From: a virus
Lineage: Duplodnaviria; Heunggongvirae; Uroviricota; Caudoviricetes
Virus record (IMG/VR): IMGVR_UViG_3300013121_000010
Coordinates: 77,903-141,902 of that record
Reading direction: 5' to 3' (one strand)
DNA: 64,000 nucleotides
The notes under the pieces were generated by a model. It had not been told where the DNA came from and did not search any database. It saw nothing but the letters and a program-made list of their open reading frames with translations. The first letter of the stretch is position 1. Every line of letters begins with the position of its first letter. Positions 4,037-63,407 of this stretch are shown here, piece by piece. A program made the position numbers and the translations under genes.

Positions 4037-4318
4037 TTATTTAATATCCTCTGTAAACAAACTTAGTAGACCTAAAACAGAATTAACTTTATATTTACTA
4101 AAATCAAATCCATTTTTAAAATTACAATTTGGGCAAGTAAAATTACCAGAACATATACAAAGACTATCAGTTACTAAACAATAACAGTTAATACATGCTA
4201 ATGTACTTATACAACCTGTATTATTTATTCTTGCACTATAAACAGAATTATTATACTCTTTAGCCTGTTCTTTGTTATATCCTACGTTTTTAAACGTTAG
4301 CATTTTGAATATCCGCAA
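4037..4318 (-). CDS. small Cys-rich hypothetical protein
   Basis: Many CxxC pairs; overlaps the 3-prime end of the RNR gene so may be spurious. Confidence 0.2.
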   Translation of the reverse strand: MRIFKMLTFKNVGYNKEQAKEYNNSVYSARINNTGCISTLACINCYCLVTDSLCICSGNFTCPNCNFKNGFDFSKYKVNSVLGLLSLFTEDIK

Positions 4319-7300: not shown

Positions 7301-8349
7301 TTATCAAATGTATAACCTATAATACCAGAGTGGAAAACTATTTGTGTAGAACCATCTATTTTAGTATTATCATTTATATCAGGTATTAAACCAAATAAAC
7401 TTGAACCATAATTAGAAACAAACTTGATTATTTCTTCTTCTTTGCTATTAAAGGTAAAAGTTATTCCTCTAATCTTATCTTTTGTTTTTGAGTCAGAAAA
7501 TATACATCCATCACCATACCATAAACCTAAAAATCTAGCAAAGTTTTCGTCAACTTTCCAGTTAGAATTAACCTCTTTGTGTTTCTTTTTATGATTTGGT
7601 TTGTAACAGTAAATAAGGTTAATTTTGTTTTCATCATAGTTTTTATTTACAATATAACTATAATCGCCATAAGTTAAATAATTACCAAATAATTCGTTTA
7701 AATTTATATCTTTGATTATTCCAACATCATTCCTTTTTGGAATAGCAATATAATCACCAGACCTTAAATACTCTACAGTATTCCAAGAAGGTTTTTCTCC
7801 CCACTTTAATTGTTCTTTGCTTATAGATAAAAATTTATGGTTATCGGTTACTTTAATTTCTGGTGTACCAAAACACTTTAATTTAAAGACTGTTCTATTA
7901 GAAAGCTTATTTTTATGTATTTGTTCTACATTTTCAACAGTACCTTTATGTGTAACAACCTTATCTCCAATAGATACATCACATATTTTTTTGACACCGC
8001 TATTTACAGTGAACACATTAGTGTCTTTATCAAAACAATTCGACAAACTTACATATTGATGTGGGTTTCCTATCCCATACATAGGCGAACCTTGTGGAAC
8101 AATATACTTGAAGTCTTTAAGTAAATTAAAAATATCCCCTTCTGATAGTGGCTCACTAAATTTCTTTGCTTCAATTCTAGCAAATTCTTTAGCAATACGA
8201 CTATGCATATCATCAGGGGTTTTTTCTAAAATATTACCTTCATTATCTCTTAATGCATATTTATCAACAAATACTTTAGCAGGTAATTCTTCGCCATTAA
8301 AATAAGAAAGAGACGCTTGAAGCGTCTCATCGTAGGTGTAAATTTTCAT
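4297..8349 (-). CDS. nrdJ: ribonucleotide reductase, class II-like (NrdJ-type), interrupted by two inteins
   Basis: 1350 aa; NPC...GEI catalytic-cysteine motif split by an insertion; C-terminal CPECG...CVTCKNCG zinc finger typical of monomeric class II RNR; two Hint-domain insertions. Confidence 0.8.
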   Translation of the reverse strand: MKIYTYDETLQASLSYFNGEELPAKVFVDKYALRDNEGNILEKTPDDMHSRIAKEFARIEAKKFSEPLSEGDIFNLLKDFKYIVPQGSPMYGIGNPHQYVSLSNCFDKDTNVFTVNSGVKKICDVSIGDKVVTHKGTVENVEQIHKNKLSNRTVFKLKCFGTPEIKVTDNHKFLSISKEQLKWGEKPSWNTVEYLRSGDYIAIPKRNDVGIIKDINLNELFGNYLTYGDYSYIVNKNYDENKINLIYCYKPNHKKKHKEVNSNWKVDENFARFLGLWYGDGCIFSDSKTKDKIRGITFTFNSKEEEIIKFVSNYGSSLFGLIPDINDNTKIDGSTQIVFHSGIIGYTFDKLFGRGCNGKRLNNDIYSWPKKLIENLLIGLIESDGCVTSGGSTRVVLNNRNLIESFYHLLRSHGILACITHGLPPGDYSRLSFTNNSYLKKFCKKNYFDDRLNYESKNKHQYSIEIDGIIYVRINEKEKIKYNEEYVYTLGISNTHSYNVEGLISLNCFVINSPADSYGGIHHTDEQLSHVSKRRGGIGIDISNLRPEGSPTKNSSRTSTGILSFMERYSNSIREVGQYGRRGAMLLTLDVHHPQVLDFTTVKNDRTKVTGANISLRLSDEFLNAVQNDEDYELRFPVDSKTPKISKKTKAKEVWKAIIKNAHEMAEPGLVFWDTILRNSLPDCYAAFGFKTESLNPCQPGHTKILTESGIKNLSDINIGDYIWSKEGWTKVLNKWSNGVKDVYKYSTTAGCVYCTKNHRLVVDDKNTKVEAQYAKTINIFISETELKTFDIKSSEYSSTEEVFDITVDNKSNSYWSNGCDVSNCGEICLSIYDSCRLLLLNLYSYVDNPFTANAKFNYKKFLSHAIIAQRLMDDLIDLEIESIDRILNKIENDPEPLNIKQREIELWQNIKKYCELGRRTGTGITALGDAIAACGFKYDSDESLQTVEKIYKTLKFGCYLSSIEMAKELGPFPVFNYELEKDCEFLKRMEDESLIIDEDLTLYGKDILNAMKKYGRRNIALLTTSPAGTVSILTQTTSGIEPVFMTHYFRKKKGNLQDENFRCDFTDQNGDMWMEFPVYHPKLKEWMRITGETDITKSPYYGACANDINWRKRVELQALAGKHVDHSISSTINLPNNVSVEEVATIYETAWKTGTIKGITVYRDGCRTGVLTAEKSSEIKKPQEVIRPKALDCEVHHVTVKGTQYFVLLGILNNKIYEVFAGKNGVLDKSIKNAKIVKKRGGHYHLVAADDTKEIYLAPITVTCNEEEEAVTRLTSLLLRSGTELHEIVLQLEKVSGNISSFSKAIARVLKKHIPDDTIVKEKCPECGAESMVRQEGCVTCKNCGYSKC
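5878..6258 (-). mobile_element. mini-intein 2 in RNR (about 127 aa) inserted at the NPC/GEI active-site motif
   Basis: Extein NP + C...VSN + CGEI restores the NPCGEI motif once the insertion is removed. Confidence 0.6.
6829..8037 (-). mobile_element. intein 1 in RNR (about 403 aa) with a LAGLIDADG homing-endonuclease domain
   Basis: Starts CFDKDTNVF (Hint block A) and ends ...ISLN followed by Cys; two LAGLIDADG-like motifs LGLWYGDGC and LIGLIESDGC. Confidence 0.65.
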
Positions 8350-37746: not shown

Positions 37747-37752
37747 ATAGTT

Positions 37753-37830
37753 TAGAGAACAGTTAAACAGGTTAGTTGCTTACGCAACATTCAGTTACAA
37801 TGATTGAAGTAACCCATTTATTCACATCTA
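37753..37830 (-). repeat. conserved 78-nt element, copy 1 (second copy at 41185-41261), immediately upstream of a tRNA
   Basis: TAGAGAACAnTTAAACAGGTTAGT + hairpin + ATTGAAGTAACCCATTTATTCACATCTA; the hairpin is GTTGC-TTAC-GCAAC here and GTGC-TTTC-GCAC in copy 2, a compensatory change. Confidence 0.5.
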
Positions 37831-37842
37831 AACTACACTATC

Positions 37843-38857: not shown

Positions 38858-38858
38858 G

Positions 38859-38929
38859 TACCCACTACAGGAATCGAGCCTGTTTCTTAACTTTGTCACA
38901 GTTACATTCTACCATTGAACTAAGCGGGT
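38859..38929 (-). tRNA. tRNA-Val (GAC)
   Basis: Anticodon stem TAACT/AGTTA with loop GTGACAA; T-arm ACAGG-CTCGATT-CCTGT. Confidence 0.5.
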
Positions 38930-39200: not shown

Positions 39201-39229
39201 ATTATACCAGGAACTTAGCGTTCTGTCAA
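39201..39229 (-). promoter_or_regulatory. sigma70-like promoter TTGACA-17-TATAAT (minus strand) inside the 3-prime end of the Ro60 gene
   Basis: Reverse complement reads TTGACAgaacgctaagttcctggTATAAT. Confidence 0.55.
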
Positions 39230-40780
39230 GTCCGACATTTCCTTTGCATATCTTAAAATTCCGTCGCTCCATCCACCTAAGATATAAGTTCTGTCGTATA
39301 CTTCTGGCATAATAGTATCAGTATATCCAGCGACCTGCACAAGATATACATTTACCTTTGGATTGACGTTCTTTCTATAGGTGTTCACCAACATAGGAAC
39401 ATCAATACAATATGAATGATACCATAAATACTTTGAGTATTCATCTGGGTTCCTACCATAAAGTCCACCATGACCAGCTTGCATATCACTATAGATGAAA
39501 ACATTATCCCAATGTTCAGCTTTAGCTATAGCATCACGCCAAAACAACCAAATTCCATTTTCAGTTGATTTACCAATTCTGTTAGCTAAACTATTAGCAT
39601 TTTTTAAATCATCAAAAATACTAGAATTTTTGCGAATACTGAAAGTTTCCAGTTTATCACCAAAAACACCTAAATATCCATCATTAGAAACCTTACCAGT
39701 AATAATACCAGTTAAGTTCGCAATTTCAGATACCTTAACAGAACCATATTGACTAGTAGTTGTACCTTGTGCCGAACCACTATTATCGCAAAGCGACATA
39801 GTACGTCCTTTAAACTGAGGTAGTGAATGCAAGGAAATATTCAGGCAGTTTTCAATTGCATCCAAAACACTACCAGGAGCATTTACAGCTTTCAGTTCTT
39901 TGTAAGCCGTCCAATACCTAAACGGCAGTTGCTTACCTTTTTCGGCAGTTTTAACCAACTTATCTAGAACAACTTCCATATTAGCATTATTTTCAACAAA
40001 ATTTCTCAAATTGCGAAGTAATGCCATGTGCCCCATAACTGGAACGCATTCATCCCAACTTTTACCTTGAGAACGCATACTTTCCCAAGTTTCAGTATTT
40101 TTCAAAGTACCCTTTACAAGCCCATCAATAGCTGGTGTAGGAACAGGGTGAACCAAGTTAATAACATCTACTGTCTTAACTTCACGATTCTCCATTTTGT
40201 ACTTAGCAAGTTCATACTCACTAAATGTTGTTAAAACATAAGCTAAGGCTCGCTTTAAAGAGCTAGGGATAGCCACGCCTTTGAATGCGGACTTGTGATA
40301 AGCCACACAAACAGCAGGTTCATCCGCCCTCTTAACTATTTCCTTTGCATATCTGCGTATTAATTGAGTGCCTTTACTACCTTTATGGTTTGCAGCCCTT
40401 ACCAAAATAACTTGTGGTGTAGTTCTGATATTATCAGTATTACGCAAATGAGCGGCAAGTTCTAGAGTTTGTTTAACACTAAAATCTAAAGCCTTATCAA
40501 TACACTTCTCAAGAGTATTCTTAGCAGTATCACCTTCTAGCTCTACCAAAACCTTACCAAGTTGCTTAGTTAGGTCAAACTTAACCTTAAAAGTAGGAGA
40601 AGCCTTTTGAGTTTCTCCATAATAAGTTGGTTCGCCAAAGAAACAGCTTGCTGCTGCAACACGAAGTTTATGAATTGGATTGGAAATATCAAAGGATGTT
40701 CCATCCATAAAATTACGATGAGAGTTCTTATGAACTCTCTTTTCGTTTAGTGAGTTTACTCTTTTAGAATTTACAGCCAT
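39215..40780 (-). CDS. rsr: Ro60/Rsr orthologue (TROVE domain plus C-terminal vWA with MIDAS)
   Basis: N-terminal TROVE-like ...AAASCFFGEPTYYGE...; C-terminal vWA with DxSGS MIDAS (LCDNSGSAQG); 521 aa, matching Ro60 domain order and size. Confidence 0.6.
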   Translation of the reverse strand: MAVNSKRVNSLNEKRVHKNSHRNFMDGTSFDISNPIHKLRVAAASCFFGEPTYYGETQKASPTFKVKFDLTKQLGKVLVELEGDTAKNTLEKCIDKALDFSVKQTLELAAHLRNTDNIRTTPQVILVRAANHKGSKGTQLIRRYAKEIVKRADEPAVCVAYHKSAFKGVAIPSSLKRALAYVLTTFSEYELAKYKMENREVKTVDVINLVHPVPTPAIDGLVKGTLKNTETWESMRSQGKSWDECVPVMGHMALLRNLRNFVENNANMEVVLDKLVKTAEKGKQLPFRYWTAYKELKAVNAPGSVLDAIENCLNISLHSLPQFKGRTMSLCDNSGSAQGTTTSQYGSVKVSEIANLTGIITGKVSNDGYLGVFGDKLETFSIRKNSSIFDDLKNANSLANRIGKSTENGIWLFWRDAIAKAEHWDNVFIYSDMQAGHGGLYGRNPDEYSKYLWYHSYCIDVPMLVNTYRKNVNPKVNVYLVQVAGYTDTIMPEVYDRTYILGGWSDGILRYAKEMSDLTER

Positions 40781-41109
40781 TTTTAAATCTCCTAATCCTA
40801 GATTTCTAACCTTTCTTTAATAAGTTTTGTAAAATAATCGAATGCTATCTGTTTAGCTTTTTCAATACCTTCATCTACTGGACAAAGAACAATTTTTGTT
40901 TTTATAACTAGAAATTGGGTCCATTACCTTATAACATTCAGAAAGAGTATGTGGATACCATCCTTTAAAGATTTTCATATTATCTAACCTTTCATTTTAA
41001 AAGATATTCTTAGAGAACATAACTATAAAGTGTTTTTAATCCCAATTTTTTGATGGACGGGATTTTCAATTTTAAATGAAGTAACTCTATATCTCACATC
41101 TAAAAATAA

Positions 41110-41184
41110 GTGGACCTTGAGGGAGTCGCACCCTCTATCAGAATTTGCAGGATTCCAAATTTACCTCTAAAAAGGCCCATTTTG
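41110..41184 (-). ncRNA. tRNA-like RNA with non-canonical T-loop TGCGACT and anticodon-like loop CCTGCAA (Cys-like GCA); lies upstream of rsr
   Basis: Acceptor GGGCCTT/AAGGTCC; T-arm GAGGG-TGCGACT-CCCTC (G in place of the universal U55); C at position 33 of the anticodon loop. Confidence 0.45.
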
Positions 41185-41261
41185 TAGAGAACAATTAAAC
41201 AGGTTAGTGCTTTCGCACGACTAATTAATTCTAATTGAAGTAACCCATTTATTCACATCTA
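41185..41261 (-). repeat. conserved 78-nt element, copy 2
   Basis: See copy 1 at 37753-37830. Confidence 0.5.
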
Positions 41262-41265
41262 CAAG

Positions 41266-41338
41266 CACCAATAACGGGAATCGAACCCGCCGCGATAGGA
41301 TAGACAGTCCTACATCACCCCCAGATGAACTTATTGGT
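41266..41338 (-). tRNA. tRNA-Asp (GTC)
   Basis: Anticodon stem TAGGA/TCCTA with loop CTGTCTA; T-arm GCGGG-TTCGATT-CCCGT. Confidence 0.5.
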
Positions 41339-41349
41339 ATATCAAACAG

Positions 41350-41433
41350 TCTCGGAGACAGGATTTGAACCTGCATGGTCATTAAGACCGGAAACTTCTA
41401 AGGTTTCTGCGTATCCCTTTCCGCCACTCCGAG
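41350..41433 (-). tRNA. tRNA-Leu (TAG), type II
   Basis: Anticodon stem GAAAC/GTTTC with loop CTTAGAA; variable-arm hairpin GGTC-TTAAT-GACC; T-arm GCAGG-TTCAAAT-CCTGT. Confidence 0.55.
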
Positions 41434-41546
41434 ATAAAATTAAGCTAGTAGGTCAGGTAACGCTCCTGCAACAACGGATTAACAGTCCGCCCGAAAAACT
41501 TCTTTCATCCTACTAATATGAGAGGAATCCTCTCATTTGTTCTTTC

Positions 41547-41575
41547 ATTATACCGGAAGCTTTCCTTCCTGTCAA
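41547..41575 (-). promoter_or_regulatory. sigma70-like promoter TTGACA-17-TATAAT (minus strand) with a structured roughly 95-nt leader before tRNA-Leu
   Basis: Reverse complement reads TTGACAggaaggaaagcttccggTATAAT; the leader holds hairpin GAGAGGAUUCCUCUC and a long-range stem TAGTAGG...CCTACTA. Confidence 0.55.
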
Positions 41576-41589
41576 GCCCCATCTCTAAA

Positions 41590-41960
41590 AATTTTTAAAG
41601 CGTAGCTTTACCATAAAACGGAGTTTTTAACTCATTAAACCTATCAGCATCAAAGTTTAAAATAAAATCCGTAGTACCATCATCAAAGATATATTCTTTA
41701 TCGCCGATTGATACTGAACATGTACGCACACTTATTATAAGCAACGTATTTACCAACTTCGATAGAACTTCCAGCTAAATCTAACATATCTTTACAACTT
41801 TCTTTTCCTGAAAACCTTTATATGTTTCTTTAAGTGTAACACTTAAAACTTTAGAGTCATCACCGTTAGAATCTTTAACGAGAACCTCAAGTTCTCCGTC
41901 TAGCTTTTCAAGTTCTTTGATTAAGTCTTTAACCAACATAGTGCTATACACTCCTTACAA
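41590..41960 (-). pseudogene. decayed fragments of the CPIALAIKEK-family / MLDSVGKK-family gene pair
   Basis: Minus-strand frames encode ...FDADRFNELKTPFYGKATL (matches the C-terminus of ORF 43889-44185) and MLDLAGSSIEVGKYVAY (matches the N-terminus of ORF 43563-43895), interrupted by stops. Confidence 0.45.
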
Positions 41961-42053
41961 CTCAAGAGTTACGACAAACGGGGTTTTTAGTAACCAGTCG
42001 TTACCTTCATCAAAGTTATTAACAAAATTCTTTTTCTTTTTTGCTTGAAAATA

Positions 42054-42140
42054 AACAGTCCCGAATAAAGGAATTGAACCTCTTGACCGCCACCATACTT
42101 AATAGGTCAACTGTTTTACAGACAGCCGTATGGGATAGCC
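42054..42140 (-). ncRNA. tRNA-Tyr (GTA)-like gene lacking a canonical D-arm, with a large variable stem-loop (paralogue of 44204-44288)
   Basis: Anticodon stem GCTGT/ACAGT with loop CTGTAAA; only about 10 nt (ATCCCATACG) between acceptor and anticodon stem; variable stem TTGACC/GGTCAA. Confidence 0.4.
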
Positions 42141-42174
42141 GGGGATTAAGTAGCGCAATCAGGACTCGAATCAG

Positions 42175-42247
42175 CACCATCAGCAGGAGTCGAACCCGCA
42201 TAGAACTGTTTAGAACACAGACACACTATCCGTTGTGTTATGATGGC
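42175..42247 (-). tRNA. tRNA-Arg (TCT)
   Basis: D stem ACAC/GTGT; anticodon loop GTTCTAA; T-arm GCGGG-TTCGACT-CCTGC. Confidence 0.5.
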
Positions 42248-42347
42248 GTTTTCTTAGGTATTCCTTTTAATTTTTATTCCCTAAGTGGCAAAACTTTAGT
42301 ATTAGAAGGCTTCTGTGACCAACATAACTAAAATCTTGTCAAAGTGT

Positions 42348-42420
42348 TAGATACTGGAGTCGCACCAATCAGTCCTACCTTATGAGGGTTGGTTGAGCCT
42401 ACGCCCATCTGGCTTGTTCA
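42348..42420 (-). ncRNA. tRNA-Met (CAT)-like with T-loop TGCGACT and a mismatched acceptor stem
   Basis: Anticodon stem AACC/GGTT with loop CTCATAA; T-arm ATTGG-TGCGACT-CCAGT; paralogue at 44488-44560. Confidence 0.4.
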
Positions 42421-42423
42421 TTC

Positions 42424-42452
42424 ATTATACCGGAAGCATCGCTTCCTGTCAA
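42424..42452 (-). promoter_or_regulatory. sigma70-like promoter TTGACA-17-TATAAT (minus strand)
   Basis: Reverse complement reads TTGACAggaagcgatgcttccggTATAAT. Confidence 0.55.
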
Positions 42453-42453
42453 G

Positions 42454-42524
42454 TCCCCATTGCTGGAATCGAGCCAGCTTCTTATCCGTGTCATAGATAC
42501 ATTCTACCATTGAACTAAACGGGG
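42454..42524 (-). tRNA. tRNA-Val (GAC), second copy
   Basis: Anticodon stem TATCT/GGATA with loop ATGACAC; T-arm GCTGG-CTCGATT-CCAGC. Confidence 0.45.
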
Positions 42525-42529
42525 GTTAA

Positions 42530-42610
42530 GCAGGTTTGTGACAAATCGAATGCCCTAGCTTTCGCAACTGTTTTGGAGGCAGTTTCCCATCCCACTGGGG
42601 AGCAAACCTG
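42530..42610 (-). tRNA. tRNA-Trp (CCA) with an 8-bp terminal helix and a long variable region
   Basis: Terminal stem CAGGTTTG/CAAACCTG; D stem CCCC/GGGA; anticodon loop CTCCAAA; paralogue at 44561-44640 has terminal stem CATATTTG/CAAATATG (compensatory). Confidence 0.45.
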
Positions 42611-43230
42611 TATTACATTGGAAGGATTATTGATTACCTTCAACCATCCTTAAATCCGATATTGTTCAGCCATACACTTATAGAGTAGCTAGTTCTATAA
42701 TTAACGTGTAGCTCGTTTGGTTACAAGCAAAGGAAAGCAGACTTCAACATTGTTCTTATTCCTTACCACCCTCACATCAGGTTGGCCAACCCAATGCTAT
42801 TAGTGCTTTATACCGAATTTACATTCTGAACGTTAGTAGGACACTTTTCAGTGTACTCCCAACTGTATTTAGGGCAGTCAACCCTATTTTCTACCACAAT
42901 GTAAGTAGCCCCGCATGGAAGTCGAACCATGTTCCCAAGATTAACCTACTACTATTAGTTTCCTAATCAGAAATATTTTTATTTCTTTGTAGTCTGGACT
43001 ATATCATCAACCAAATTGGTTGTTTCGCGTTTAGTCTCTGAGGAACCCTTTCGGTTTCCTGCTGATTGCCCAATATTTTAGATTGTCACGATTGTAATCG
43101 TACTAAAATCTCTAAGGGGTTTCCAGCATATAGCGAAATTCATTTTACATATTACTATGTAAACGCTCTTATTTTATGGAATCAAGTCTTGTGCTAATCC
43201 AGTTAAAGCTTCGGAGCCATTTTCTTCTTA

Positions 43231-43259
43231 CATTATATCAGATGCTTCGCATCTTGTCA
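43231..43259 (-). promoter_or_regulatory. sigma70-like promoter TTGACA-17-TATAAT (minus strand) firing into the ORF-free 42610-43225 region
   Basis: Reverse complement reads TTGACAagatgcgaagcatctgaTATAAT. Confidence 0.55.
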
Positions 43260-43553
43260 AGTTCTCTCTATTGTAAAACTAATTTCTCTCAATTTGTTAA
43301 AATTTGCTGTATCAAAATTCTTAATAAACTTATCAACTTTATTACAATCTTTAATAGAAGTAACTTTATATCTCTTCTTAGTATATCTATCTATAAATAT
43401 TTCAATAGACCCAGAATCACCAACAATTGCTGTTTTATGTAGCTTTTCTTTAATAGCTAAAGCAACTGGGCAAAATTGACATATATCCAGTGACTTTATT
43501 TTATTTTTAGCCTGTTCAATATGCTTACGCTTAACTTCAATTTTAATACTCAT
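43257..43553 (-). CDS. CPIALAIKEK-motif family protein (paralogue A2)
   Basis: KRKHIEQAKNK...CQFCPVALAIKEKLHK; three intact paralogues plus one decayed copy. Confidence 0.5.
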   Translation of the reverse strand: MSIKIEVKRKHIEQAKNKIKSLDICQFCPVALAIKEKLHKTAIVGDSGSIEIFIDRYTKKRYKVTSIKDCNKVDKFIKNFDTANFNKLREISFTIERT

Positions 43554-43562
43554 AATAAATCC

Positions 43563-43895
43563 TTAATCGCTAAAATCTAACACACCTTTATGTAACCACT
43601 TTTCTATACACTTTTTAAGTGTACATGAATTTGGTATACCATTAAAAAAATCTTTTACAATTTCTAGCGGTTCAACCACTACAAACTTTCCTGCTTCTTT
43701 AAAAGTTGTAATAATTTTAATTGTTAGTTGTGGTTTATAGTCTACGCTAAGTCTTTGAATTTTAACCTTATTTTTATTTTCATCAATATCAATAACTTTT
43801 CCGGTTATCATTCCATATTCAGCGTCAACATTACCTTTACCCCCATAAGAGATAAAATCACCAATATTAACCTTTTTACCAACAGAATCTAACAT
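43563..43895 (-). CDS. hypothetical protein (MLDSVGKK family)
   Basis: Translationally coupled to the upstream paralogue; a fragment homologue lies in the 41590-41960 pseudogene. Confidence 0.45.
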   Translation of the reverse strand: MLDSVGKKVNIGDFISYGGKGNVDAEYGMITGKVIDIDENKNKVKIQRLSVDYKPQLTIKIITTFKEAGKFVVVEPLEIVKDFFNGIPNSCTLKKCIEKWLHKGVLDFSD

Positions 43896-44185
43896 AGTTT
43901 TACAACTTCCAATGTAAGATAAAATGGTGTTTTCAATTCATTATATTTTTCACCATCAAAAGATTCTACAAAATCTTTAACGTGCAAATTGCCATAACTA
44001 TAACGCTTATCATCTATGAAGATTCTAGCACCACTATCAACATCAACCCTCTTATGAGTTTTCTCTTTAATAGCTAGAGCAATAGGGCAGCATGAGCTTA
44101 AAACAATACCATTTTTATGTCTAATTTTCTTTGCTCTTTCAATATGGCGTTTAAGAACTTTTACTTTAATCAACTTCATACCCAT
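43889..44185 (-). CDS. CPIALAIKEK-motif family protein (paralogue A1)
   Basis: KRHIERAKKI...SCCPIALAIKEKTHK. Confidence 0.5.
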   Translation of the reverse strand: MGMKLIKVKVLKRHIERAKKIRHKNGIVLSSCCPIALAIKEKTHKRVDVDSGARIFIDDKRYSYGNLHVKDFVESFDGEKYNELKTPFYLTLEVVKLC

Positions 44186-44203
44186 TCCTTTCTTTTAGTG
44201 CCA

Positions 44204-44288
44204 ACCAAGGGAATCGAACCCCCTGCCGCCACCATACATATTAATGGCAGTTGATTTACAGTCAACCGTATGGGATAGCTGGCTTAAG
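44204..44288 (-). ncRNA. tRNA-Tyr (GTA)-like gene lacking a canonical D-arm (paralogue of 42054-42140)
   Basis: Acceptor GCCAGCT/GGTTGGC; anticodon stem GTTGA/TCAAC with loop CTGTAAA; variable stem CTGCC/GGCAG enclosing an 18-nt loop; T-arm GGGGG-TTCGATT-CCCTT. Confidence 0.4.
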
Positions 44289-44359
44289 TCTCGCAGGCAA
44301 GAATCGAACTTGCATTTTGAGCTTATGAAGCTCACGAATTGCCATTACTCTACCGCGAA
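44289..44359 (-). tRNA. tRNA-Met (CAT)
   Basis: Acceptor TTCGCGG/CTGCGAG; anticodon stem TGAGC/GCTCA with loop TTCATAA; T-arm GCAAG-TTCGATT-CTTGC. Confidence 0.5.
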
Positions 44360-44360
44360 G

Positions 44361-44433
44361 TAACCACGGTCGGTCTTGCACCGACATCTGACAATTTAGA
44401 AGATTGCCGCTCTATCTATTAAGCTACGTGGTC
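44361..44433 (-). tRNA. tRNA-Arg (TCT)-like with T-loop TGCAAGA
   Basis: D stem GCTT/GAGC; anticodon stem GCAAT/ATTGT with loop CTTCTAA; T-arm GTCGG-TGCAAGA-CCGAC (G55). Confidence 0.45.
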
Positions 44434-44448
44434 GTGTTTTGTTCTTTC

Positions 44449-44477
44449 ATTATAACAGAGGGAAAACCTCTTGTCAA
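44449..44477 (-). promoter_or_regulatory. sigma70-like promoter TTGACA-17-TATAAT (minus strand)
   Basis: Reverse complement reads TTGACAagaggttttccctctgtTATAAT. Confidence 0.55.
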
Positions 44478-44487
44478 GTGGCAGATA

Positions 44488-44560
44488 TTGGAGTCGCACC
44501 AATCAAATTAACCTTATGAGGGTTAGTCGAGCCTTCGCCCATCTGCAAGCATATTTGTGA
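44488..44560 (-). ncRNA. tRNA-Met (CAT)-like with T-loop TGCGACT (paralogue of 42348-42420)
   Basis: Anticodon stem AACC/GGTT with loop CTCATAA; T-arm ATTGG-TGCGACT-CCAAT. Confidence 0.4.
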
Positions 44561-44640
44561 GGAATCGAACCCCTTAGCGTTTAGCAACTGTTTTGGAGGC
44601 AGTTTCCCATCCCACTGGGAAGCAAATATATGAGCCGTAA
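44561..44640 (-). tRNA. tRNA-Trp (CCA), paralogue of 42530-42610
   Basis: D stem TCCC/GGGA; anticodon loop CTCCAAA; T-loop TTCGATT. Confidence 0.45.
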
Positions 44641-44780: not shown

Positions 44781-45089
44781 TTACGGTTTATGTAAAGTGT
44801 CCCTAGCAATTTTAAATTTAATTGGGCGAGCTTTATTAAATAAACCGTTATCAAAATTACTAATAAAATTATCAATTGCGGAAACATACCTGTTTCCTAA
44901 AACTTCGTATACTTTACCATCTATATTAATATCTTCTGGAGATATAACATAAACTTTTTTATGAGTCTTTTCCTTAATTGCTAATGCAATTGGACAAGAA
45001 TTAGAGCTAACGCAATCATATTTTTGTGCAATTTTAATTGCATCTTTAATATGTTTTCTAGTAACTTGAATTTCAATCATATGTTTCAC
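44781..45089 (-). CDS. CPIALAIKEK-motif family protein (paralogue A3)
   Basis: RKHIKDAIKI...NSCPIALAIKEKTHK. Confidence 0.5.
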   Translation of the reverse strand: MKHMIEIQVTRKHIKDAIKIAQKYDCVSSNSCPIALAIKEKTHKKVYVISPEDINIDGKVYEVLGNRYVSAIDNFISNFDNGLFNKARPIKFKIARDTLHKP

Positions 45090-46392: not shown

Positions 46393-46734
46393 AAGTGGAC
46401 CGGGCGGGTACTGCCCCCGCGTACTAAAATAAATTTAAAGATTTGAATAATATACAGGTTTCTTTAAGATTTTAAGGTAATCTTATAACCTACCTTACGA
46501 TTTGAATTTTAACTATTAAAGGTTTTAAGTTAAAACCACTCTAATTAAAGAGCAAATGAGTAATCGACGTTTTTGTTGCTCTTACGAGCAACTTTAGTGC
46601 TTGTTGCACTCAAACCACGAACACTGAACATACTATCGTTTGCTGTTACTTTTTTGACTGTTTTTAGGTAGCCTCAGCCTCTACCACCTGCCAGCACTTT
46701 AAATTTAAGCTAGGCGAATCTATTTCCGGCCCAT

Positions 46735-58533: not shown

Positions 58534-59217
58534 TTATTTTATACAACCAACCTTTCCATTTTCTACATCAACATAAGCAAGTTCATTCAAACAAATAAAT
58601 CTTGTATTATTTATTACTTTATCAAAATTAAGATGGTGATGACCAAAAATCCAATTATCTACAACTAAATTAGTATATATTTCATTTAATAATCTAGAAG
58701 TGTAACTTGGTTTTATTTCACTACAATTAGAATATTTTGTTATCAAGTGTTTTTCATCAAGTAAAAATGACGGGCATTCATGTGTAATCATTATGTGGAC
58801 ATACTTTTTCTCATTAAAATATTCAATAGCCTTATTTCCTTGTTCATTTGTTAATTCTTCATTAACCCAATAATCATATCCAACAGTCCTACAAAATCTA
58901 TCTATAGAAAAAGCACCACGAACAAAAGAAAAACTATGACTATCAATATTATAGGTTCCATAATCGCCTAAACTATGAGGTATAATTCTATCATAATCAT
59001 CGTGATTACCTAAAACTACCCTATGTCTAAATTCGTCAACTTGACTCATCTTTTTGTGAAAATATTTGCCGTATCCCATATCGCCGACCTGAATACTATA
59101 GCGACACCCCTTTATTAAATCAAGGTATGTTCTTTTGGTTGCGTCTGGATTAAAAGAAAAACCATCCTTGCGATGCTCATCTATAAGATTGTGTACATCA
59201 CCAATTATTCTAACCAT
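58534..59217 (-). CDS. calcineurin-like metallophosphoesterase
   Basis: GDVHN, GDMGYG, GNHDDYD and GHHH motifs. Confidence 0.7.
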   Translation of the reverse strand: MVRIIGDVHNLIDEHRKDGFSFNPDATKRTYLDLIKGCRYSIQVGDMGYGKYFHKKMSQVDEFRHRVVLGNHDDYDRIIPHSLGDYGTYNIDSHSFSFVRGAFSIDRFCRTVGYDYWVNEELTNEQGNKAIEYFNEKKYVHIMITHECPSFLLDEKHLITKYSNCSEIKPSYTSRLLNEIYTNLVVDNWIFGHHHLNFDKVINNTRFICLNELAYVDVENGKVGCIK

Positions 59218-59723
59218 TAATTAATAATATCCTTTAAATAAAAACAACCATTTCTTTCTAAACTGAATTTATTTTTATTAGAATAAATGTATAGTTCAGT
59301 CCTGTGTGGACCATTTAAATTGTAATAATGCTCTATAAAACTTTTCCAATTTTTAAGATTTGGTACTCGAACGTGAGTGCGTGGGTCAAAAGGTGTTGAC
59401 CAAATAGGTAAGTTACACTCCATATACTCTGAATATTTATACTTTTTAAGTACATACTCAGATGAATATAATTCTTTTGTTTTTCTACCTAACAATATTG
59501 AAACACAACGGTGATGACCGTTATGAATCATAATTCGTCCATCCTCGAACTCAACAAGCTCAACAAGACCGTCAAGAGTTCGCTTATTAGTAGATAGTAA
59601 AATATGAGCATTGATAGCACTTAAAGTATAAATATGTCCATTCTTAACATATTCAATCATCTGTTTTAGTTCATTTTTATTTCTCAACCCAATTTGAGAA
59701 ACCCAAATATCATTTAGTTTCAC
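59217..59723 (-). CDS. ParB-like nuclease domain protein
   Basis: IHNGHHRCVSILLG resembles the ParB/Srx motif. Confidence 0.4.
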   Translation of the reverse strand: MKLNDIWVSQIGLRNKNELKQMIEYVKNGHIYTLSAINAHILLSTNKRTLDGLVELVEFEDGRIMIHNGHHRCVSILLGRKTKELYSSEYVLKKYKYSEYMECNLPIWSTPFDPRTHVRVPNLKNWKSFIEHYYNLNGPHRTELYIYSNKNKFSLERNGCFYLKDIIN

Positions 59724-60039
59724 GCTTTTTCTTATTCCTTTCTTCTGCTTCTATTTGTTTTTTCTTTTTTATTAACCATTCATTATTAATAAATTCTTCT
59801 GGTGTAAGAATACCTCTCTTCTTATTACATTTTTTACAAGCAATTTTGCAATTAGATAAGCAGTCCTCACCACCCATAGAAACAGGTTTTATATGTTCTA
59901 TTGTAGAAATTTCATAAGTTAAGTGATAACCGCACCAGTAGCATGGCTGAGTTTGTTGACCATTAAACAATTGCTGTTTAATTATTCTAAAATTCTCTAA
60001 TTTAATCTTCCAGTTCATTTTTATATGGAATAAATTCAT
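59710..60039 (-). CDS. HNH endonuclease
   Basis: CYWCG...EHIKPVSMGGEDCLSNCKIACKKCNKKRG. Confidence 0.7.
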   Translation of the reverse strand: MNLFHIKMNWKIKLENFRIIKQQLFNGQQTQPCYWCGYHLTYEISTIEHIKPVSMGGEDCLSNCKIACKKCNKKRGILTPEEFINNEWLIKKKKQIEAEERNKKKRETK

Positions 60040-60259
60040 TATTCTTTGTTAATTTCAAACAACCATCATCAATTTCAGTATCAATTTTACTACAACAAAC
60101 ATAACCTTGAATAACTTTTAAGTCTGGTGTCATACCACCCTCAGACCTATAGCCATCAGCGGTTGTGTGTTGAGAACATTGTTTTTGATGATAACAGCCA
60201 ACAATATTACAAACACCATCCCATTTTCTAACTTCACCTATTTTGTAAAATACTTTCAT
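60002..60259 (-). CDS. Cys-rich hypothetical protein
   Basis: ORF only. Confidence 0.3.
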   Translation of the reverse strand: MKVFYKIGEVRKWDGVCNIVGCYHQKQCSQHTTADGYRSEGGMTPDLKVIQGYVCCSKIDTEIDDGCLKLTKNNEFIPYKNELED

Positions 60260-60796
60260 TTAAATTTCACCTGCTTTCAAGAATTGAATAGTAGAATTTG
60301 GTGTGTCAAATTCGCCGCACTTTGGGCACTTTACCAATTTTTGCTTCATATACAGATTACCGCGACGAACAGAAAATTCAATTGATGAATATTTACATTT
60401 TTGACAGTTATACTTACATCTGTTGCCAAAAGAATATCCATAACAATGATAGGGATTTGGGTTTCTATACCCAAGTTCAATCATAAGATTCTTCCAAACA
60501 TCTTCATGTCCTTGAGTTCTATTGTACATATAGATATTACGTTTAGCAATACCCTTTTGATGACGATAAGAATCAACAATATGGCAGGCTTCATGCCTCA
60601 GCGTTTCAATCTTATCAGTATCAGAAGCAAAATTCCAGTATTTAGAACTGATTTTGATTTGCTTTTTAATGTAGCTGGCAGATGCGGCAGCTACATTCAT
60701 TCGATTACAAAATTCCACATTGATATAATTTACAAGTTGTGGATGACCAAAAAACTCAAAAACATCGTTAATTTCGTCTTTAACGTTAGTAATCAT
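60260..60796 (-). CDS. SprT-like zinc metallopeptidase domain protein
   Basis: RHEACHIV HExxH motif; C-terminal Cys cluster; tandem paralogue of 60818-61423. Confidence 0.5.
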   Translation of the reverse strand: MITNVKDEINDVFEFFGHPQLVNYINVEFCNRMNVAAASASYIKKQIKISSKYWNFASDTDKIETLRHEACHIVDSYRHQKGIAKRNIYMYNRTQGHEDVWKNLMIELGYRNPNPYHCYGYSFGNRCKYNCQKCKYSSIEFSVRRGNLYMKQKLVKCPKCGEFDTPNSTIQFLKAGEI

Positions 60797-60817
60797 GTTT
60801 ACTATTTTACCACACTT

Positions 60818-61423
60818 CTATTGCTCTGTCAATACCCTCTTTGTAATCCTTTCGCTCCTTATGATACTTTTACAATTACTACAATATCTTTTACTAGACC
60901 CATTTTTAATCCTTAAATATAAATTATGAGTAAGAATGTCTCTATTAGGACAATCATAACAGTTATTAACGTAAAATGGAATTCCGTTTAAAGTGTAAAT
61001 TTGTGAGTTTGGTTCATAACTTAAGAATTTCATAAGAAATGACCAACCTTCACCATGTCCATTAGTTGATTTGTTTTTTGAATCGAATTTACGCCATTCA
61101 TTTGAAATACTTCTAAAATAATCATTTACAATATGACAGCTTTCATGTATAATCAATTCTTTAATTTTATCTTTATTATTATGTTTTAGAAAATGAGAAG
61201 ATATTCGTATAATTTTTCTATCAAATGAAGCATCACCAGCAATCGTTTTTAAATTTACAAGTTTTACATCTATAGTTCCAACTAATTCATCACAACCTAA
61301 AAAATAAAATGTATCATTAACAATTTTTAATATTTGAGTCAAAGTTAAAATATGAGCCACTTTTACCTCTTTTTTCATGTAATGTATTTGCCATGTGATT
61401 ATGTACCCACACATCATCATCAT
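60818..61423 (-). CDS. SprT-like zinc metallopeptidase domain protein (paralogue)
   Basis: IHESCHIV HExxH motif; shares the GH.E.W..LM..LGY block and C-terminal Cys cluster with its neighbour. Confidence 0.5.
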   Translation of the reverse strand: MMMMCGYIITWQIHYMKKEVKVAHILTLTQILKIVNDTFYFLGCDELVGTIDVKLVNLKTIAGDASFDRKIIRISSHFLKHNNKDKIKELIIHESCHIVNDYFRSISNEWRKFDSKNKSTNGHGEGWSFLMKFLSYEPNSQIYTLNGIPFYVNNCYDCPNRDILTHNLYLRIKNGSSKRYCSNCKSIIRSERITKRVLTEQ

Positions 61424-61985
61424 AGTAATTACATATTGAATTATAAGATTTTACAACATCATCTTCACTCAATAGACAATAATGATTTGCGTCAACACCA
61501 ACATTTAACATATTTTTCTGTACTCTCCAAGAACTATGTATATGACCAACTAAATTAAAAGCATCTGGTGTTGACAGTCTTGGATAATGATTCAAACTAA
61601 CGTTTAATTTACAATCTAAAACTAAGTTTATACTTATGCCTTCTTCAAATATTTCTGTGATACCCAAACGTTTAAAAAATGCATCAGAATAGTTTCTATC
61701 GTGATTACCTCTAAGTAATGTTACTTTATTAAATTTTGAAAACAATAAAAATATTTTTTCTGCGGCAAAACGGTACTCATGGATTTGTTCATAAGCATTT
61801 TTGCAAAATAAATCACCTAAAATAAATAGACTATCATTATCTGAATTAACATATCTACGATTATCTGATAATTTATTTAAGAACCAACTATCAGTATAGT
61901 ATTTAGGTCTATTCAATACTGATAAACGAGCTTCGGTTTCGCACAAATGCCAATCTGATGTAAAATATATCATTAATCGACCCAC
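61317..61985 (-). CDS. calcineurin-like metallophosphoesterase
   Basis: DWH, ILGDLF, RGNHDRNY and GHIH motifs. Confidence 0.7.
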   Translation of the reverse strand: MGRLMIYFTSDWHLCETEARLSVLNRPKYYTDSWFLNKLSDNRRYVNSDNDSLFILGDLFCKNAYEQIHEYRFAAEKIFLLFSKFNKVTLLRGNHDRNYSDAFFKRLGITEIFEEGISINLVLDCKLNVSLNHYPRLSTPDAFNLVGHIHSSWRVQKNMLNVGVDANHYCLLSEDDVVKSYNSICNYYDDDVWVHNHMANTLHEKRGKSGSYFNFDSNIKNC

Positions 61986-62254
61986 ATTTCTAATTCACTT
62001 TCATAAAAGTCAATATACTTAAAATCAATACTATCTTTATTTAAAGTAACAAAAGAACATTTACAGCCATAAGCTTCATAAGAAGCAGTATGAAAATCAA
62101 AATTATACAACAATCTTACTACTAACATTTTCTTTTCAGGATTTAGTTTATGTCTTACAATATCACCACATTTAAATTTAAAATCATTAACTGTTGGTGG
62201 TTTCATAAATCCAAAAACATATAAAAAAAGCTTATACCAAAAATTATTTTTCAT
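61973..62254 (-). CDS. hypothetical protein
   Basis: ORF only. Confidence 0.3.
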   Translation of the reverse strand: MKNNFWYKLFLYVFGFMKPPTVNDFKFKCGDIVRHKLNPEKKMLVVRLLYNFDFHTASYEAYGCKCSFVTLNKDSIDFKYIDFYESELEMWVD

Positions 62255-62306
62255 GTTTATCTCCCAAATTTTCTATTTATGTTTTCAGTAGTATAAAATA
62301 TATTAA

Positions 62307-63407
62307 TCAATGGTATTCAGTACCCCATTTCCTATTCAAATAGTCAAAACTTATATTTTTTAATTGTCTACGACTAAAACATTTATTGTGAGTAATTGCA
62401 CTTTGTTCAAATTTACTTGTAATAACTATACCTTCTCTAATTTGCTCAGGGTATAAAGTAGACTTTCCATCAGTAAGACTTTCTACAATTTCATGACTAA
62501 ATAAACCATCATAAAGTACAGGAACGTGATTTACTCCAAATTGGTTAAATAACTTAATCTTGTTATGATAAGATAGGTATGAGCCATTAAATGTAATATC
62601 AAAAGCAAGGAAATTAACCTCACCATTCTTTAACCCGTAAGTCAAATCTTGAATACCGCTTCCAAACATTTCACCAAATAGTACGGCACCCCTAGGAAGT
62701 TCAGTTTCACTTTCGTATGTAGAACCATCAATTTCATCTATATGTTTATCTATACCAATAAGATGAGCTAGTAAGGCTTTTACATTATCAGTTAGGTGCT
62801 TCCAGTAAACAGACTCTACGCCATTTTTATCAAATCTACGGCGACGTACATTATGAGAACCAGCAGCCCAAGTCCATACACCATCTTCTACTATAAGACC
62901 TAACCTTAAGTTTTGCCCGTGAACCTTTTCCGTTATAATTACACTATCAATACCAGGTTCAAACAGATTTGGGTAGTGCTTATAATTTTCCATATCATAA
63001 TATCTATGAAATAGAGAACAATCACGTTCAGCATCACCGCAAACCTGCTTTACAGGCGGCTCATACTTTTTAATTTCAAGTAAGTTGGCTACATCGTCCC
63101 CCTCTTTCATACTTTTTAATTCTGGACGCAAATCAAGAGACATTACAGCCCCATAAGACTTCTTCCCCCTAAGGTTAGCACAAAGAACACGCCCCTTAGA
63201 AAGATACTTAGTAATCTTCATATCGTCACTAAGTGAACTTGGTAGAATAGAATCTGGTGGGAAATAAACTACTAATTCTCCTTGCTTATGTTTACCTTTA
63301 GGAACACAGCTTTCCCAACCTTTAATGACAGCAACTTCTAAAGAGTCAGCATTAGGATGAGGAACTATCTTATCAATCTTACAAATTTCTACTATTAAAC
63401 TACTCAT
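62307..63407 (-). CDS. RNA ligase (Rnl2/DraRnl-like nucleotidyltransferase) with an N-terminal tRNA-binding-type OB domain
   Basis: N-terminal KIVPHPNADSLEVAVIKG...ELVVYFPPDSI matches the Trbp111/CsaA-type tRNA-binding OB motif; lysine adenylyltransferase motif I TEKVHGQN. Confidence 0.6.
   Translation of the reverse strand: MSSLIVEICKIDKIVPHPNADSLEVAVIKGWESCVPKGKHKQGELVVYFPPDSILPSSLSDDMKITKYLSKGRVLCANLRGKKSYGAVMSLDLRPELKSMKEGDDVANLLEIKKYEPPVKQVCGDAERDCSLFHRYYDMENYKHYPNLFEPGIDSVIITEKVHGQNLRLGLIVEDGVWTWAAGSHNVRRRRFDKNGVESVYWKHLTDNVKALLAHLIGIDKHIDEIDGSTYESETELPRGAVLFGEMFGSGIQDLTYGLKNGEVNFLAFDITFNGSYLSYHNKIKLFNQFGVNHVPVLYDGLFSHEIVESLTDGKSTLYPEQIREGIVITSKFEQSAITHNKCFSRRQLKNISFDYLNRKWGTEYH

Follow-up and report, generated by a model that had tools for sequence, protein, structure and literature searches.

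We analysed a 64,000-nucleotide stretch of a tailed-phage genome (Caudoviricetes; positions 77,903 to 141,902 of IMG/VR record IMGVR_UViG_3300013121_000010; hereafter the window), whose tRNA array contains several genes with G at T-loop position 55, where tRNA has U, normally modified to pseudouridine (Ψ). We consider it likely, with a probability of roughly 0.7, that these loci are tRNAs and a transfer-messenger RNA (tmRNA) in which the D-loop and T-loop have changed together to give an alternative elbow. In standard tRNA, G18 intercalates between nucleotides 57 and 58 and bonds Ψ55, and G19 pairs with C56 (PMC4810234; PMC7912444). The phage RNAs would combine a T-loop of the form N54-G55-C56-R57-N58 with a D-loop that has A-G at the place of G18-G19, such that G19-C56 is retained and A18·G55 substitutes for G18·Ψ55. 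This would be a shift from the tRNA-specific G/U pair to the general T-loop pair A/G. Such a co-varied change should preserve the elbow, and the G55 tRNAs would be processed and aminoacylated as ordinary tRNAs and used in translation; that they are processed and aminoacylated is suggested by the identity elements that each member keeps. We infer the A18·G55 geometry, aminoacylation and ribosome use from the sequence features, covariation and conservation described below. G55 makes Ψ55 impossible, and 2′-O-methylation of position 18 (Gm18) is probably absent from these tRNAs as well.

G55 T-loops in the phage tRNA array

An earlier note on this DNA had drawn attention to at least four tRNA-like loci with G55. 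All four are present, and two more were found in the window, a tRNA-Asn(GUU) and a tmRNA:

41110-41178, minus strand: locus 1, 69-nt tRNA-Ala(UGC)-like gene (relaxed ARAGORN; Rfam tRNA 26.7 bits, E 3.7e-4)
42344-42413, minus strand: locus 2, a degraded paralogue of locus 3, CAU anticodon (ARAGORN mitochondrial mode only)
44478-44547, minus strand: locus 3, 70-nt tRNA(CAU) (ARAGORN tRNA-Met(CAU), relaxed; Rfam tRNA 22.6 bits; minimum-energy fold is a cloverleaf)
44360-44433, minus strand: locus 4, tRNA-Arg(UCU) (default ARAGORN; Rfam tRNA 58.3 bits; fold z = -3.7)
41444-41515, minus strand: tRNA-Asn(GUU) (relaxed ARAGORN; minimum-energy fold is a cloverleaf; no Rfam match)
46393-46732, minus strand: phage tmRNA (Rfam RF00023, 50.1 bits against a gathering score of 47, model positions 1-374)

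The ranges given here for loci 1-4 correct the earlier ones, of which 44488-44560 ran into a Trp-like tRNA at 44549-44629.

Loci 1-4 are all encoded on the minus strand; their T-arms combine a perfect 5-bp stem with a 7-nt loop that has G as its second base. The T-arms read GAGGG-TGCGACT-CCCTC in locus 1 (loop 41130-41124, G55 at 41129), ATTGG-TGCGACT-CCAGT in locus 2 (G55 at 42363), ATTGG-TGCGACT-CCAAT in locus 3 (G55 at 44497) and GTCGG-TGCAAGA-CCGAC in locus 4 (G55 at 44379), which gives the loop UGCGACU for loci 1, 2 and 3 and UGCAAGA for locus 4. The anticodon loops are as first described, CCTGCAA in locus 1, CTCATAA in loci 2 and 3 and CTTCTAA in locus 4. When aligned to the Rfam tRNA covariance model, locus 4 (58.3 bits), locus 1 (26.7 bits) and locus 3 (22.6 bits) all keep the register U54-G55-C56, and U55 is not restored. 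A shifted T-loop register was ruled out by such alignments for loci 1, 3 and 4 and for the tmRNA. Sequencing error, which the earlier note had thought improbable given the recurrence in paralogues, is ruled out by the same alignments together with recurrence in other assemblies; G55 is also conserved in related phages.

Perfect 5-bp hairpins with a TGCRA loop occur five times on the minus strand of the window, one of them (~18689) outside any tRNA, and not once on the plus strand. A reversed-sequence control of 731 kb gave four acceptable ARAGORN calls, none with G55. The G55 pattern in the window exceeds chance. ARAGORN at default settings reports 26 tRNA genes in the window; it finds locus 4 and misses loci 1-3, the tRNA-Asn and the tmRNA, which suggests that the tRNAs of phages may be undercounted. 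With relaxed settings locus 1 is called as tRNA-Ala(UGC) and locus 3 as tRNA-Met(CAU), and locus 2 is called in mitochondrial mode only. A cloverleaf with 7-bp acceptor, 5-bp anticodon stem, 5-bp T-stem and 7-nt loops is obtained for loci 3 and 4 and the tRNA-Asn both from ARAGORN and as the minimum-energy fold. Aminoacylation identity elements, read from the sequence only, fit the anticodon class in the window members. Set against the tRNA norm, the elbow has G for U55 in every member and A for G18 in most, and keeps G19 and C56.

Coupled change of the D-loop and T-loop

The cleanest single case of the G55/A18 combination is a pair of tRNA-Arg(UCU) genes in duplicated segments of the window's array, locus 4 and a canonical copy:

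42174-42247, minus strand: canonical tRNA-Arg(UCU) copy in a duplicated array segment, D-loop AACGGAUA, T-loop UUCGACU

Locus 4 has the D-loop AAUAGAUA (A18 G19 A20) and the T-loop UGCAAGA; relative to the copy G18 has become A and U55 has become G, with the length and the remainder of the D-loop unchanged. Its anticodon loop is CTTCTAA, the Arg identity elements A20, C35 and A73 are kept, and AGA accounts for 62% of the Arg codons of the phage. We regard locus 4 as a bona fide tRNA, to judge from these features, and as a second tRNA-Arg for the commonest Arg codon of the phage. Similar G55 tRNA-Arg(UCU) genes are present in L045, L068, L072 and L001.

The coupling extends well beyond this pair. 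We took 33 loci around TROVE-gene homologues from viral contigs and other assemblies and parsed the ARAGORN tRNAs of the non-redundant loci. The window and 25 related Ro60-encoding phage loci yielded 288 well-formed cloverleaves, 19 of them with G55, and AG replaces the G18G19 doublet in 16 of these 19. GG is missing from only 16/269 U55 tRNAs compared with 16/19 G55 tRNAs (odds ratio 84, p = 7e-15). Independent metagenome tRNA arrays behave in the same way, with AG in 6/6 G55 tRNAs vs 2/84 U55 tRNAs (p = 4.5e-8), a count that leaves out the family used to retrieve the arrays. The T-loops come in three flavours in which positions 54 and 58 co-vary, U..A (UGCRA), A..U (AGCRU) and G..G (GGCRG), and some G55 members have a miniature D-arm of 4 bp with a tetraloop such as CAGU or GAAG. 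Seven G55 tRNAs of other phages score above the Rfam gathering score, at 44-59 bits.

The trait is patchy and strongly lineage-dependent. G55 is found in 4/30 tRNAs of the window and in 4/6 of L015, and in none of the tRNAs of L025 (0/42), L049 (0/34) or L050 (0/32). The nearest cultured Ro60 homologue, that of Bacillus phage G, is 39% identical, and the examined part of the phage G tRNA cluster has no G55. For phage T5, 19 T-loops were recovered from 25 tRNAs; all are UUC and none has G55. A PhoH-based retrieval of phages without Ro60 gave 10 loci with no acceptable tRNA calls, and this non-Ro60 control set (T5 plus the 10 PhoH loci) is too small to gauge G55 beyond Ro60-encoding phages. An exact 16-mer of the locus 2/3 T-arm had 11 matches in viral contigs, none of them in a tRNA-like context, and these were read as chance.

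Other co-varied departures from the standard elbow were also seen. Both tRNA-Val(GAC) genes of the window, 38858-38929(-) and 42453-42524(-), have C54 (CUCGAUU). Some tRNAs that keep U55 have an A54..U58 swap (AUCGU..); further elbow variants lie in L003 (21075), L048 (389) and L052 (23907). The tRNA-Glu of Bacillus phage G has U56 (UUUGAAU) together with the D-loop AAGUGAUAA, which would be a change of the 19:56 pair from G-C to A-U.

The tRNA-Asn and the tmRNA

Both of the additional G55 RNAs of the window have their own form of the T-loop. In the tRNA-Asn(GUU) it is AGCGUUA, with G55 and the swapped pair A54 and U58; the discriminator is G73, and the D-arm consists of 4 bp and a loop containing GAAG. 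The tmRNA has the T-loop GGCAGUA (G54 G55 C56). In the covariance-model alignment its D-loop analogue is AAAUAGAUUCG, compared with the family consensus cuGGaUUCG, so that GG is replaced by AG. The acceptor is GGGCCGG/CCGGUCC and includes G3·U70. ARAGORN may have missed this tmRNA because of the T-loop GGCAGUA. A second phage tmRNA, in L023, has GAAUAGAAUCG with the T-loop UGCGAAU and the same D-loop change. Locus 1 and the phage tmRNA of the window have in common 5′ AUGGGCC and 3′ GGUCCACUUAU. The predicted tag of the tmRNA, translated by hand, ends in ...VDYSFAL.

A compact CAU tRNA family

Locus 3 has a U1×C72 mismatch followed by G2-C71 and C3-G70, with A73; nucleotides 8 and 9 are absent, the D-arm is GGGC-GAAG-GCUC and the T-loop UGCGACU. 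A search pattern derived from loci 2 and 3 and their counterpart in L015 retrieved 11 metagenome contigs. Eight further distinct 70-nt CAU tRNAs can be aligned to loci 2 and 3, seven from metagenome tRNA arrays and one from L015, and the longer contigs that hold the metagenome members are all dense tRNA arrays. The family alignment comprises 10 sequences (loci 2 and 3, the L015 member and the seven metagenome members). The seven metagenome members follow the plan of locus 3: no nucleotides 8 and 9, a D-arm of 4 bp with the tetraloop CAGU, GAGU, CAGA or GAAG, a 3-nt linker, the anticodon loop CUCAUAA, a 5-nt variable loop and the T-loop UGCGAC(U/C). Paired positions are complementary in 91.4% of cells vs 74.1% in shuffled alignments, and compensatory double changes occur in 14/21 pairs, which 0/500 shuffles reach; slid controls give at most 0.17 compared with 0.598 for the family. 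All four pairs of the miniature D-stem show compensatory changes.

Across the 10 members, 1-72 is unpaired in 8, G2-C71 is present in 7, C3-G70 in 9 and A73 in all. The 1-72 mismatch, G2-C71, C3-G70 and A73 are the formyltransferase determinants of initiator tRNA. With these features, the 5′ sequence CGCGGG and the CAU anticodon, the locus 3 family resembles bacterial initiator tRNAfMet, from which it differs in that its 1-72 mismatch is pyrimidine×pyrimidine rather than C×A and in its non-canonical D-arm and T-loop. The anticodon-stem consensus has G29-C41 and G30-C40 but C31-G39, so that usually two of the three initiator G-C pairs are present. Judged by covariation and acceptor sequence, locus 3 is a member of a conserved, compact CAU tRNA family with an initiator-like acceptor. 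Some arrays contain another initiator-like CAU tRNA (L066, 9705-9779).

The acceptor of locus 2 contains two C·A mismatches and its anticodon stem one A·A mismatch, and a region scan gave no Rfam tRNA match for the locus at E ≤ 1 (it was not scanned alone). From these lesions we take it to be a decaying duplicate of locus 3.

Locus 1, the Ro60 gene and Y-like RNAs

The acceptor of locus 1 has G1-C72, G2-C71, G3·U70 and A73, which is the alanine identity set; its D-arm is 4 bp with the tetraloop GAGG and its anticodon loop is CCUGCAA. GCU and GCA together make up 87% of Ala codons. ARAGORN draws a cloverleaf; in the minimum-energy fold the acceptor and T arm persist and the D and anticodon arms are merged. 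A search of metagenome contigs with the acceptor/anticodon-loop/T-arm pattern of locus 1, verified on the window, returned no orthologue. The locus lies next to a gene for a Ro60-like protein and between two elements that resemble Y RNAs:

39215-40780, minus strand: TROVE-domain (Ro60/Rsr-like) protein gene (Pfam PF05731, E 6.4e-10)
41185-41262, minus strand: Y-RNA-like element YL-2, abutting the 5′ end of locus 1
41005-41103, minus strand: Y-RNA-like element YL-3, immediately following locus 1 on its 3′ side
37747-37835, minus strand: third Y-RNA-like copy, directly in front of the tRNA-Val at 37746

A gap of 330 nt separates the end of locus 1 from the TROVE open reading frame (ORF), which follows downstream on the same strand, and loci 2-4 lie 1.6-3.8 kb upstream of this ORF. 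The best identity of the TROVE protein is 61% among 5.8 billion database proteins, itself excluded. It has 3520 homologues at E ≤ 1e-20, and PF05731 is present in 120/120 among the matches listed. The gene is embedded in the tRNA/tmRNA array, and Bacillus phage G shares this arrangement of Ro60, tRNAs and tmRNA.

About 30 phage loci carry the Y-like element as a tandem array of 2-5 copies, located in the ~600 nt that precede the TROVE gene. The element is present at nearly every related locus, including that of Bacillus phage G (L052, 19252-19880). Its signature is G-N-AGUGA, 7-9 nt, GGUUACUUC and, later, YCUC. The structure consists of a co-varying closing stem, an internal loop (N-AGUGA on the 5′ side and ..YCUC on the 3′ side) and a co-varying 7-bp inner stem, on which sits an apex that begins UUACUUC and takes one of several forms: a plain hairpin, a U55 or G55 T-arm, or a nearly complete tRNA. 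G55 T-arms are found inside the Y-like RNAs of L027 (~9039) and L050 (~9597), and a Y-like RNA in L043 (9793-9855) contains an almost complete tRNA (Rfam model positions 5-66). A local hairpin of the 5′ AGUGA with the 3′ UACUUC was rejected, as the 5′ half varies without compensation.

A scan of 36-47 kb gave no Rfam family match for the Y-like element, and the Rfam Y_RNA and YrlA models had no match at E ≤ 1 over the same interval, nor at E ≤ 10 on locus 1. The motif GNCGAA(N)G is absent from 40781-41600, and its sole occurrence in the array is GGCGAAGG at 44532-44539(-) in the D-arm of locus 3. This octamer matches GNCGAAN0-1G, the proposed Ro60-binding site of YrlA, but the match is probably a coincidence because the frequency of the motif in the window equals the chance expectation. 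On the basis of its structure and position we interpret the Y-like element as the Y-RNA family of this Ro60 clade. In two of the window's copies the 3′ end adjoins a tRNA or tRNA-like gene, and the 3′ ends of the Y-like RNAs may come from RNase P cutting the abutting tRNA or locus 1. Locus 1 is an alanine-identity tRNA that may double as an RNase P site freeing the flanking Y-like RNAs, and a non-decoding role is possible for it.

Promoters and gene content

The window has a G+C content of 30%, all of its genes lie on the minus strand, and the presence of a tmRNA is supported by Rfam. Near and distant DNA searches gave no cultured-phage match for the 4-kb region or for locus 4. The tRNA array contains duplicated segments and is punctuated by seven perfect minus-strand TTGACA-N16-17-TATAAT promoters of the sigma-70 type, among them:

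44449-44477, minus strand: consensus promoter TTGACA-N17-TATAAT, 12/12 matches, directly upstream of locus 4
42424-42452, minus strand: consensus promoter, 12/12, directly upstream of locus 2
41547-41575, minus strand: consensus promoter, 12/12, upstream of the series from tRNA-Asn(G55) to the Ro60 gene

Downstream of the promoter at 41547-41575 come, in this order, tRNA-Asn(G55), tRNA-Leu, tRNA-Asp, locus 1 with a Y-like RNA on either side, a small ORF and the Ro60 gene. This order suggests that all of them form a single operon.

Several other genes of the array are unusual. Two paralogous Tyr-like tRNAs, 42058-42143(-) and 44198-44283(-), have a GUA anticodon loop (CUGUAAA) and only ~10 nt between the acceptor and the anticodon stem (AUCCCAUACG). 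The CCAUAC of this short region can pair with GUAUGG in the long variable arm. ARAGORN mis-assigned their anticodon, and the second copy is a weak Rfam tRNA-Sec match (23 bits). Two paralogous tRNA-Trp(CCA)-like genes of 80-81 nt, 42530-42609(-) and 44549-44629(-), are unusual in their 12-nt variable region, and their T-stems are imperfect; they lie just upstream of locus 2 and locus 3, respectively, each in a duplicated segment. Three paralogous ORFs of 98-102 aa within the array, 43257-43553(-), 43889-44185(-) and 44781-45089(-), share the motif CP(I/V)ALAIKEK(T/L)HK and have no assigned function.

The auxiliary genes are of the large-phage type and include an intein-bearing ribonucleotide reductase, PhoH, thymidylate synthase, NAD-salvage enzymes, an RNA ligase and phosphoesterases. 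The large subunit of the ribonucleotide reductase, 4297-8349(-), is interrupted by an intein with a LAGLIDADG endonuclease domain. The RNA ligase (PF09414) adjoins two metallophosphoesterases and an SprT-like protein, 58534-63407(-). These genes could be a set for RNA repair, which may matter if infection exposes tRNAs to attack.

Alternative explanations

A number of observations weigh against the reading of the G55 loci as tRNAs and a tmRNA with a co-varied elbow. The RF00005 gathering score is 29 bits; locus 4 lies above it (58.3), loci 1 (26.7) and 3 (22.6) lie below it, the tRNA-Asn has no Rfam match at all, and most G55 calls come from ARAGORN at a relaxed threshold. The label A18 rests on the ungapped paralogue comparison and on the covariance-model alignment of the tmRNA, and the Rfam alignment of locus 4 sets the D-loop bases differently. 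Three G55 tRNAs, including locus 1 with its GAGG, retain GG in or near the D-loop. The invariant T-loop of the locus 3 family was partly fixed by the search pattern, and the anticodon stem of locus 3 itself lacks the initiator-typical G-C pairs (it has A-U, C-G, C-G). The fold of locus 2 is not a cloverleaf (z = +0.53). Locus 1 has C33 instead of the near-invariant U33 and sits between Y-like RNAs beside the Ro60 gene, and for these reasons it may not decode. Finally, the searched collections hold no close relative of the phage, the nearest Ro60 being 61% identical.

Decay is one competing account. The loci would be tRNA pseudogenes left by array duplications, with G55 as one random lesion among many, a possibility that the earlier note had itself raised. 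The acceptor and anticodon-stem mismatches of locus 2 and its failure to fold as a cloverleaf are what such a history would produce; the region does contain duplicated segments, and loci 1-3 were missed both by default ARAGORN and by Rfam at the gathering score. Random decay would not yield a paired change of D-loop and T-loop (p = 7e-15 and 4.5e-8), and the stems are intact, with compensatory changes, and the identity elements are kept. The same change recurs in the tmRNAs of two phages and in a 70-nt family conserved across many metagenomes. Covariation refutes decay for loci 1, 3 and 4, the tRNA-Asn and the tmRNA, and it stands only for locus 2; as an account of G55 as a whole we consider it most improbable.

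The loci might instead be tRNA mimics that do not translate, either decoys or sponges for host factors or tRNA-like Y-RNA modules that work with the phage Ro60. In favour are the C33 of locus 1 and its position between two Y-like RNAs, with the TROVE gene about 330 nt further downstream on the same strand. In locus 3 the mismatch at 1-72 should weaken the binding of EF-Tu. The Y-like RNAs of related phages carry T-arms, with G55 loops in L027 and L050 and a near-complete tRNA in L043. Precedents exist in the YrlA Y RNAs, established tRNA mimics encoded near Ro60 genes, including those of phages (PMC4201824), and in the non-proteinogenic tRNAGly of S. aureus (PMC4574755). Against this, locus 4 and its seven relatives are high-scoring tRNAs, identity elements and anticodons fit codons in high demand, and the tmRNA has undergone the same change. 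G55 tRNAs also occur in the dense arrays of L066 and L072, in whose vicinity no Y-like motif was detected, and there is neither an Rfam YrlA or Y_RNA match nor a GNCGAA motif near the TROVE gene. Mimicry could apply to locus 1 alone and not to the others, and we think it unlikely as a general explanation. The suggestion that these genes form a distinct RNA class is not supported, given the 58 bits of locus 4, the 44-59 bits of the seven relatives, the retained identity elements and the setting in tRNA operons with consensus promoters; the narrower idea of a Y-RNA-like role gains some backing from the Y-like flanks of locus 1 and from the G55 T-arms in the Y-like RNAs of L027 and L050.

Two further proposals concern the reason for the change and would be layered on the reading as tRNAs and a tmRNA with an alternative elbow. 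According to one, the variant is an adaptation to conflict, hiding the phage tRNAs from an enzyme that reads the canonical corner, such as a T-loop-cutting toxin or a defence nuclease, or marking them as 'self' for a phage factor. The strong lineage dependence of G55 would fit, and the window encodes Ro60 and an RNA ligase, with metallophosphoesterase genes beside the ligase gene that are compatible with RNA repair. Phage tRNAs are known to evade tRNA-targeting defences by changes in the anticodon loop (PMC10264068, PMC11555353); T-loops go unmentioned in the retrieved papers on phage tRNA evasion. Most tRNAs of the same phage are canonical at the elbow and would remain exposed, no T-loop-directed defence is known to be linked to these phages, and neutral drift to an equally stable solution fits the data as well. 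We consider this proposal highly unlikely. The other is broader and holds that A18·G55 is a distinct elbow, free of the modifications Ψ55 and Gm18, used across the tRNA-shaped RNAs of large Ro60-encoding phages (tRNAs, the initiator-like tRNA, tmRNA and Y RNAs) and selected to separate phage from host RNAs. Separation might come about through immunity to an enzyme that acts on the T-loop or elbow, through independence from the host TruB and TrmH, or through selective handling by Ro60 and Y RNAs. This is an unlikely extension; if true, it would point to a natural orthogonal tRNA scaffold and to a new axis of phage-host conflict over tRNA.

Significance and comparison with known RNAs

The contacts G18·Ψ55 and G19·C56 define a corner that serves as a recognition feature for the ribosome, RNase P, T-boxes and many enzymes. 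The phage loci would be natural tRNAs, tmRNAs and Y-like RNAs in which this elbow contact has been swapped to the form used by other structured RNAs. The presence of a canonical and a variant tRNA-Arg(UCU) in one array provides material for asking what U55/Ψ55, TruB and Gm18 contribute, and the variant may serve as a pointer to compact or orthogonal tRNA scaffolds. The analysis also brought to light two RNA families, one of conserved, initiator-like CAU tRNAs and one that is linked to Ro60 and has no Rfam match. No description of A18/G55 tRNAs turned up in the searchable full-text literature, which is weak evidence of novelty as subscription journals mostly lie outside it.

Several known RNAs depart from the standard elbow. 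The tRNAPyl of D. hafniense has G55, lacks G18G19 and is functional (PMC1851642). Like bovine mitochondrial tRNASer(UGA), it has a small D-loop without G18G19 and lacks TΨC, and yet both function in translation. It further has A56, a 6-bp anticodon stem, a 3-nt variable loop, a 1-nt acceptor/D linker, a 5-nt D-loop and the anticodon CUA (PMC1851642). The phage loci have C56, 5-bp anticodon stems, 4-5-nt variable loops, sense anticodons, 0 or 2 linker nucleotides and 4-nt D-loops, and are in these respects not of the tRNAPyl type. A separate suppressor-type tRNA in L029 (9463-9536; anticodon UUA, T-loop UGAAAAU, D-loop without GG) does have an elbow that resembles that of D. hafniense tRNAPyl, with its G55 and A56. 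The non-proteinogenic tRNAGly of S. aureus lacks G18G19 and U55C56 and is proposed to escape translation (PMC4574755). It shows that natural bacterial tRNAs can dispense with both elements, but it has U18U19 or C18U19 rather than A18G19, its proposed role is cell-wall supply, and it belongs to a single amino-acid class.

YrlA and other bacterial and phage Y RNAs are same-strand neighbours of Ro60 genes, mimic T- and D-arms and are in some cases cut by RNase P (PMC4201824), and phage Ro60 proteins bind upstream Y-like RNAs (PMC12135203). Locus 1 is likewise close to a Ro60 gene and on the same strand. YrlA, however, has a canonical T-loop that is modified by TruB, and GNCGAA, whereas locus 1 forms a full cloverleaf whose acceptor ends are open, and has G55. 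The phage T5 RNAs rna1, rna2 and rna3 are also unexplained tRNA-like genes, scattered through a phage tRNA array that contains small ORFs and strong promoters as well; rna1 and rna2 have T-arm hairpins with canonical UUC loops, and no such hairpin was detected in rna3.

Parallels for the combination of D-loop and T-loop are found outside cellular tRNA. The Rfam family Tymo_tRNA-like (RF00233) is the second-best match of locus 1, at 14.0 bits where the gathering score is 40. In the consensus of this tymovirus tRNA-like structure, a miniature D-arm has the tetraloop CAGU with a central A-G, and the T-arm is GGGG-UGCAACU-CCCC, with G at the equivalent of position 55; the locus 3 family uses CAGU, GAGU or GAAG with UGCGAC(U/C). 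In turnip yellow mosaic virus the elbow of this element is nearly identical to that of tRNA (PMC4810234), and its free 3′-CCA end is consistent with aminoacylation (bioRxiv 10.1101/312249). The tymovirus structure terminates the genome of a plant RNA virus at its 3′ end, and its acceptor contains a pseudoknot. The phage loci are stand-alone genes of a DNA phage with a 7-bp acceptor formed from the 5′ and 3′ ends, so that only the D/T-loop design is common to both. The T-loops of riboswitches follow UGNRA, with an intercalated base that is almost always adenosine, and rRNA has a GGAAG variant (bioRxiv 10.1101/2022.12.26.521914). These T-loops dock onto receptors within large RNAs, and tRNAs as a class, with U at loop position 2, are described as the exception. 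The phage loops UGCRA and GGCRG, combined with the A of the D-loop, have the G at loop position 2 that is found in riboswitches and rRNA and would likewise place an adenosine between positions 4 and 5.

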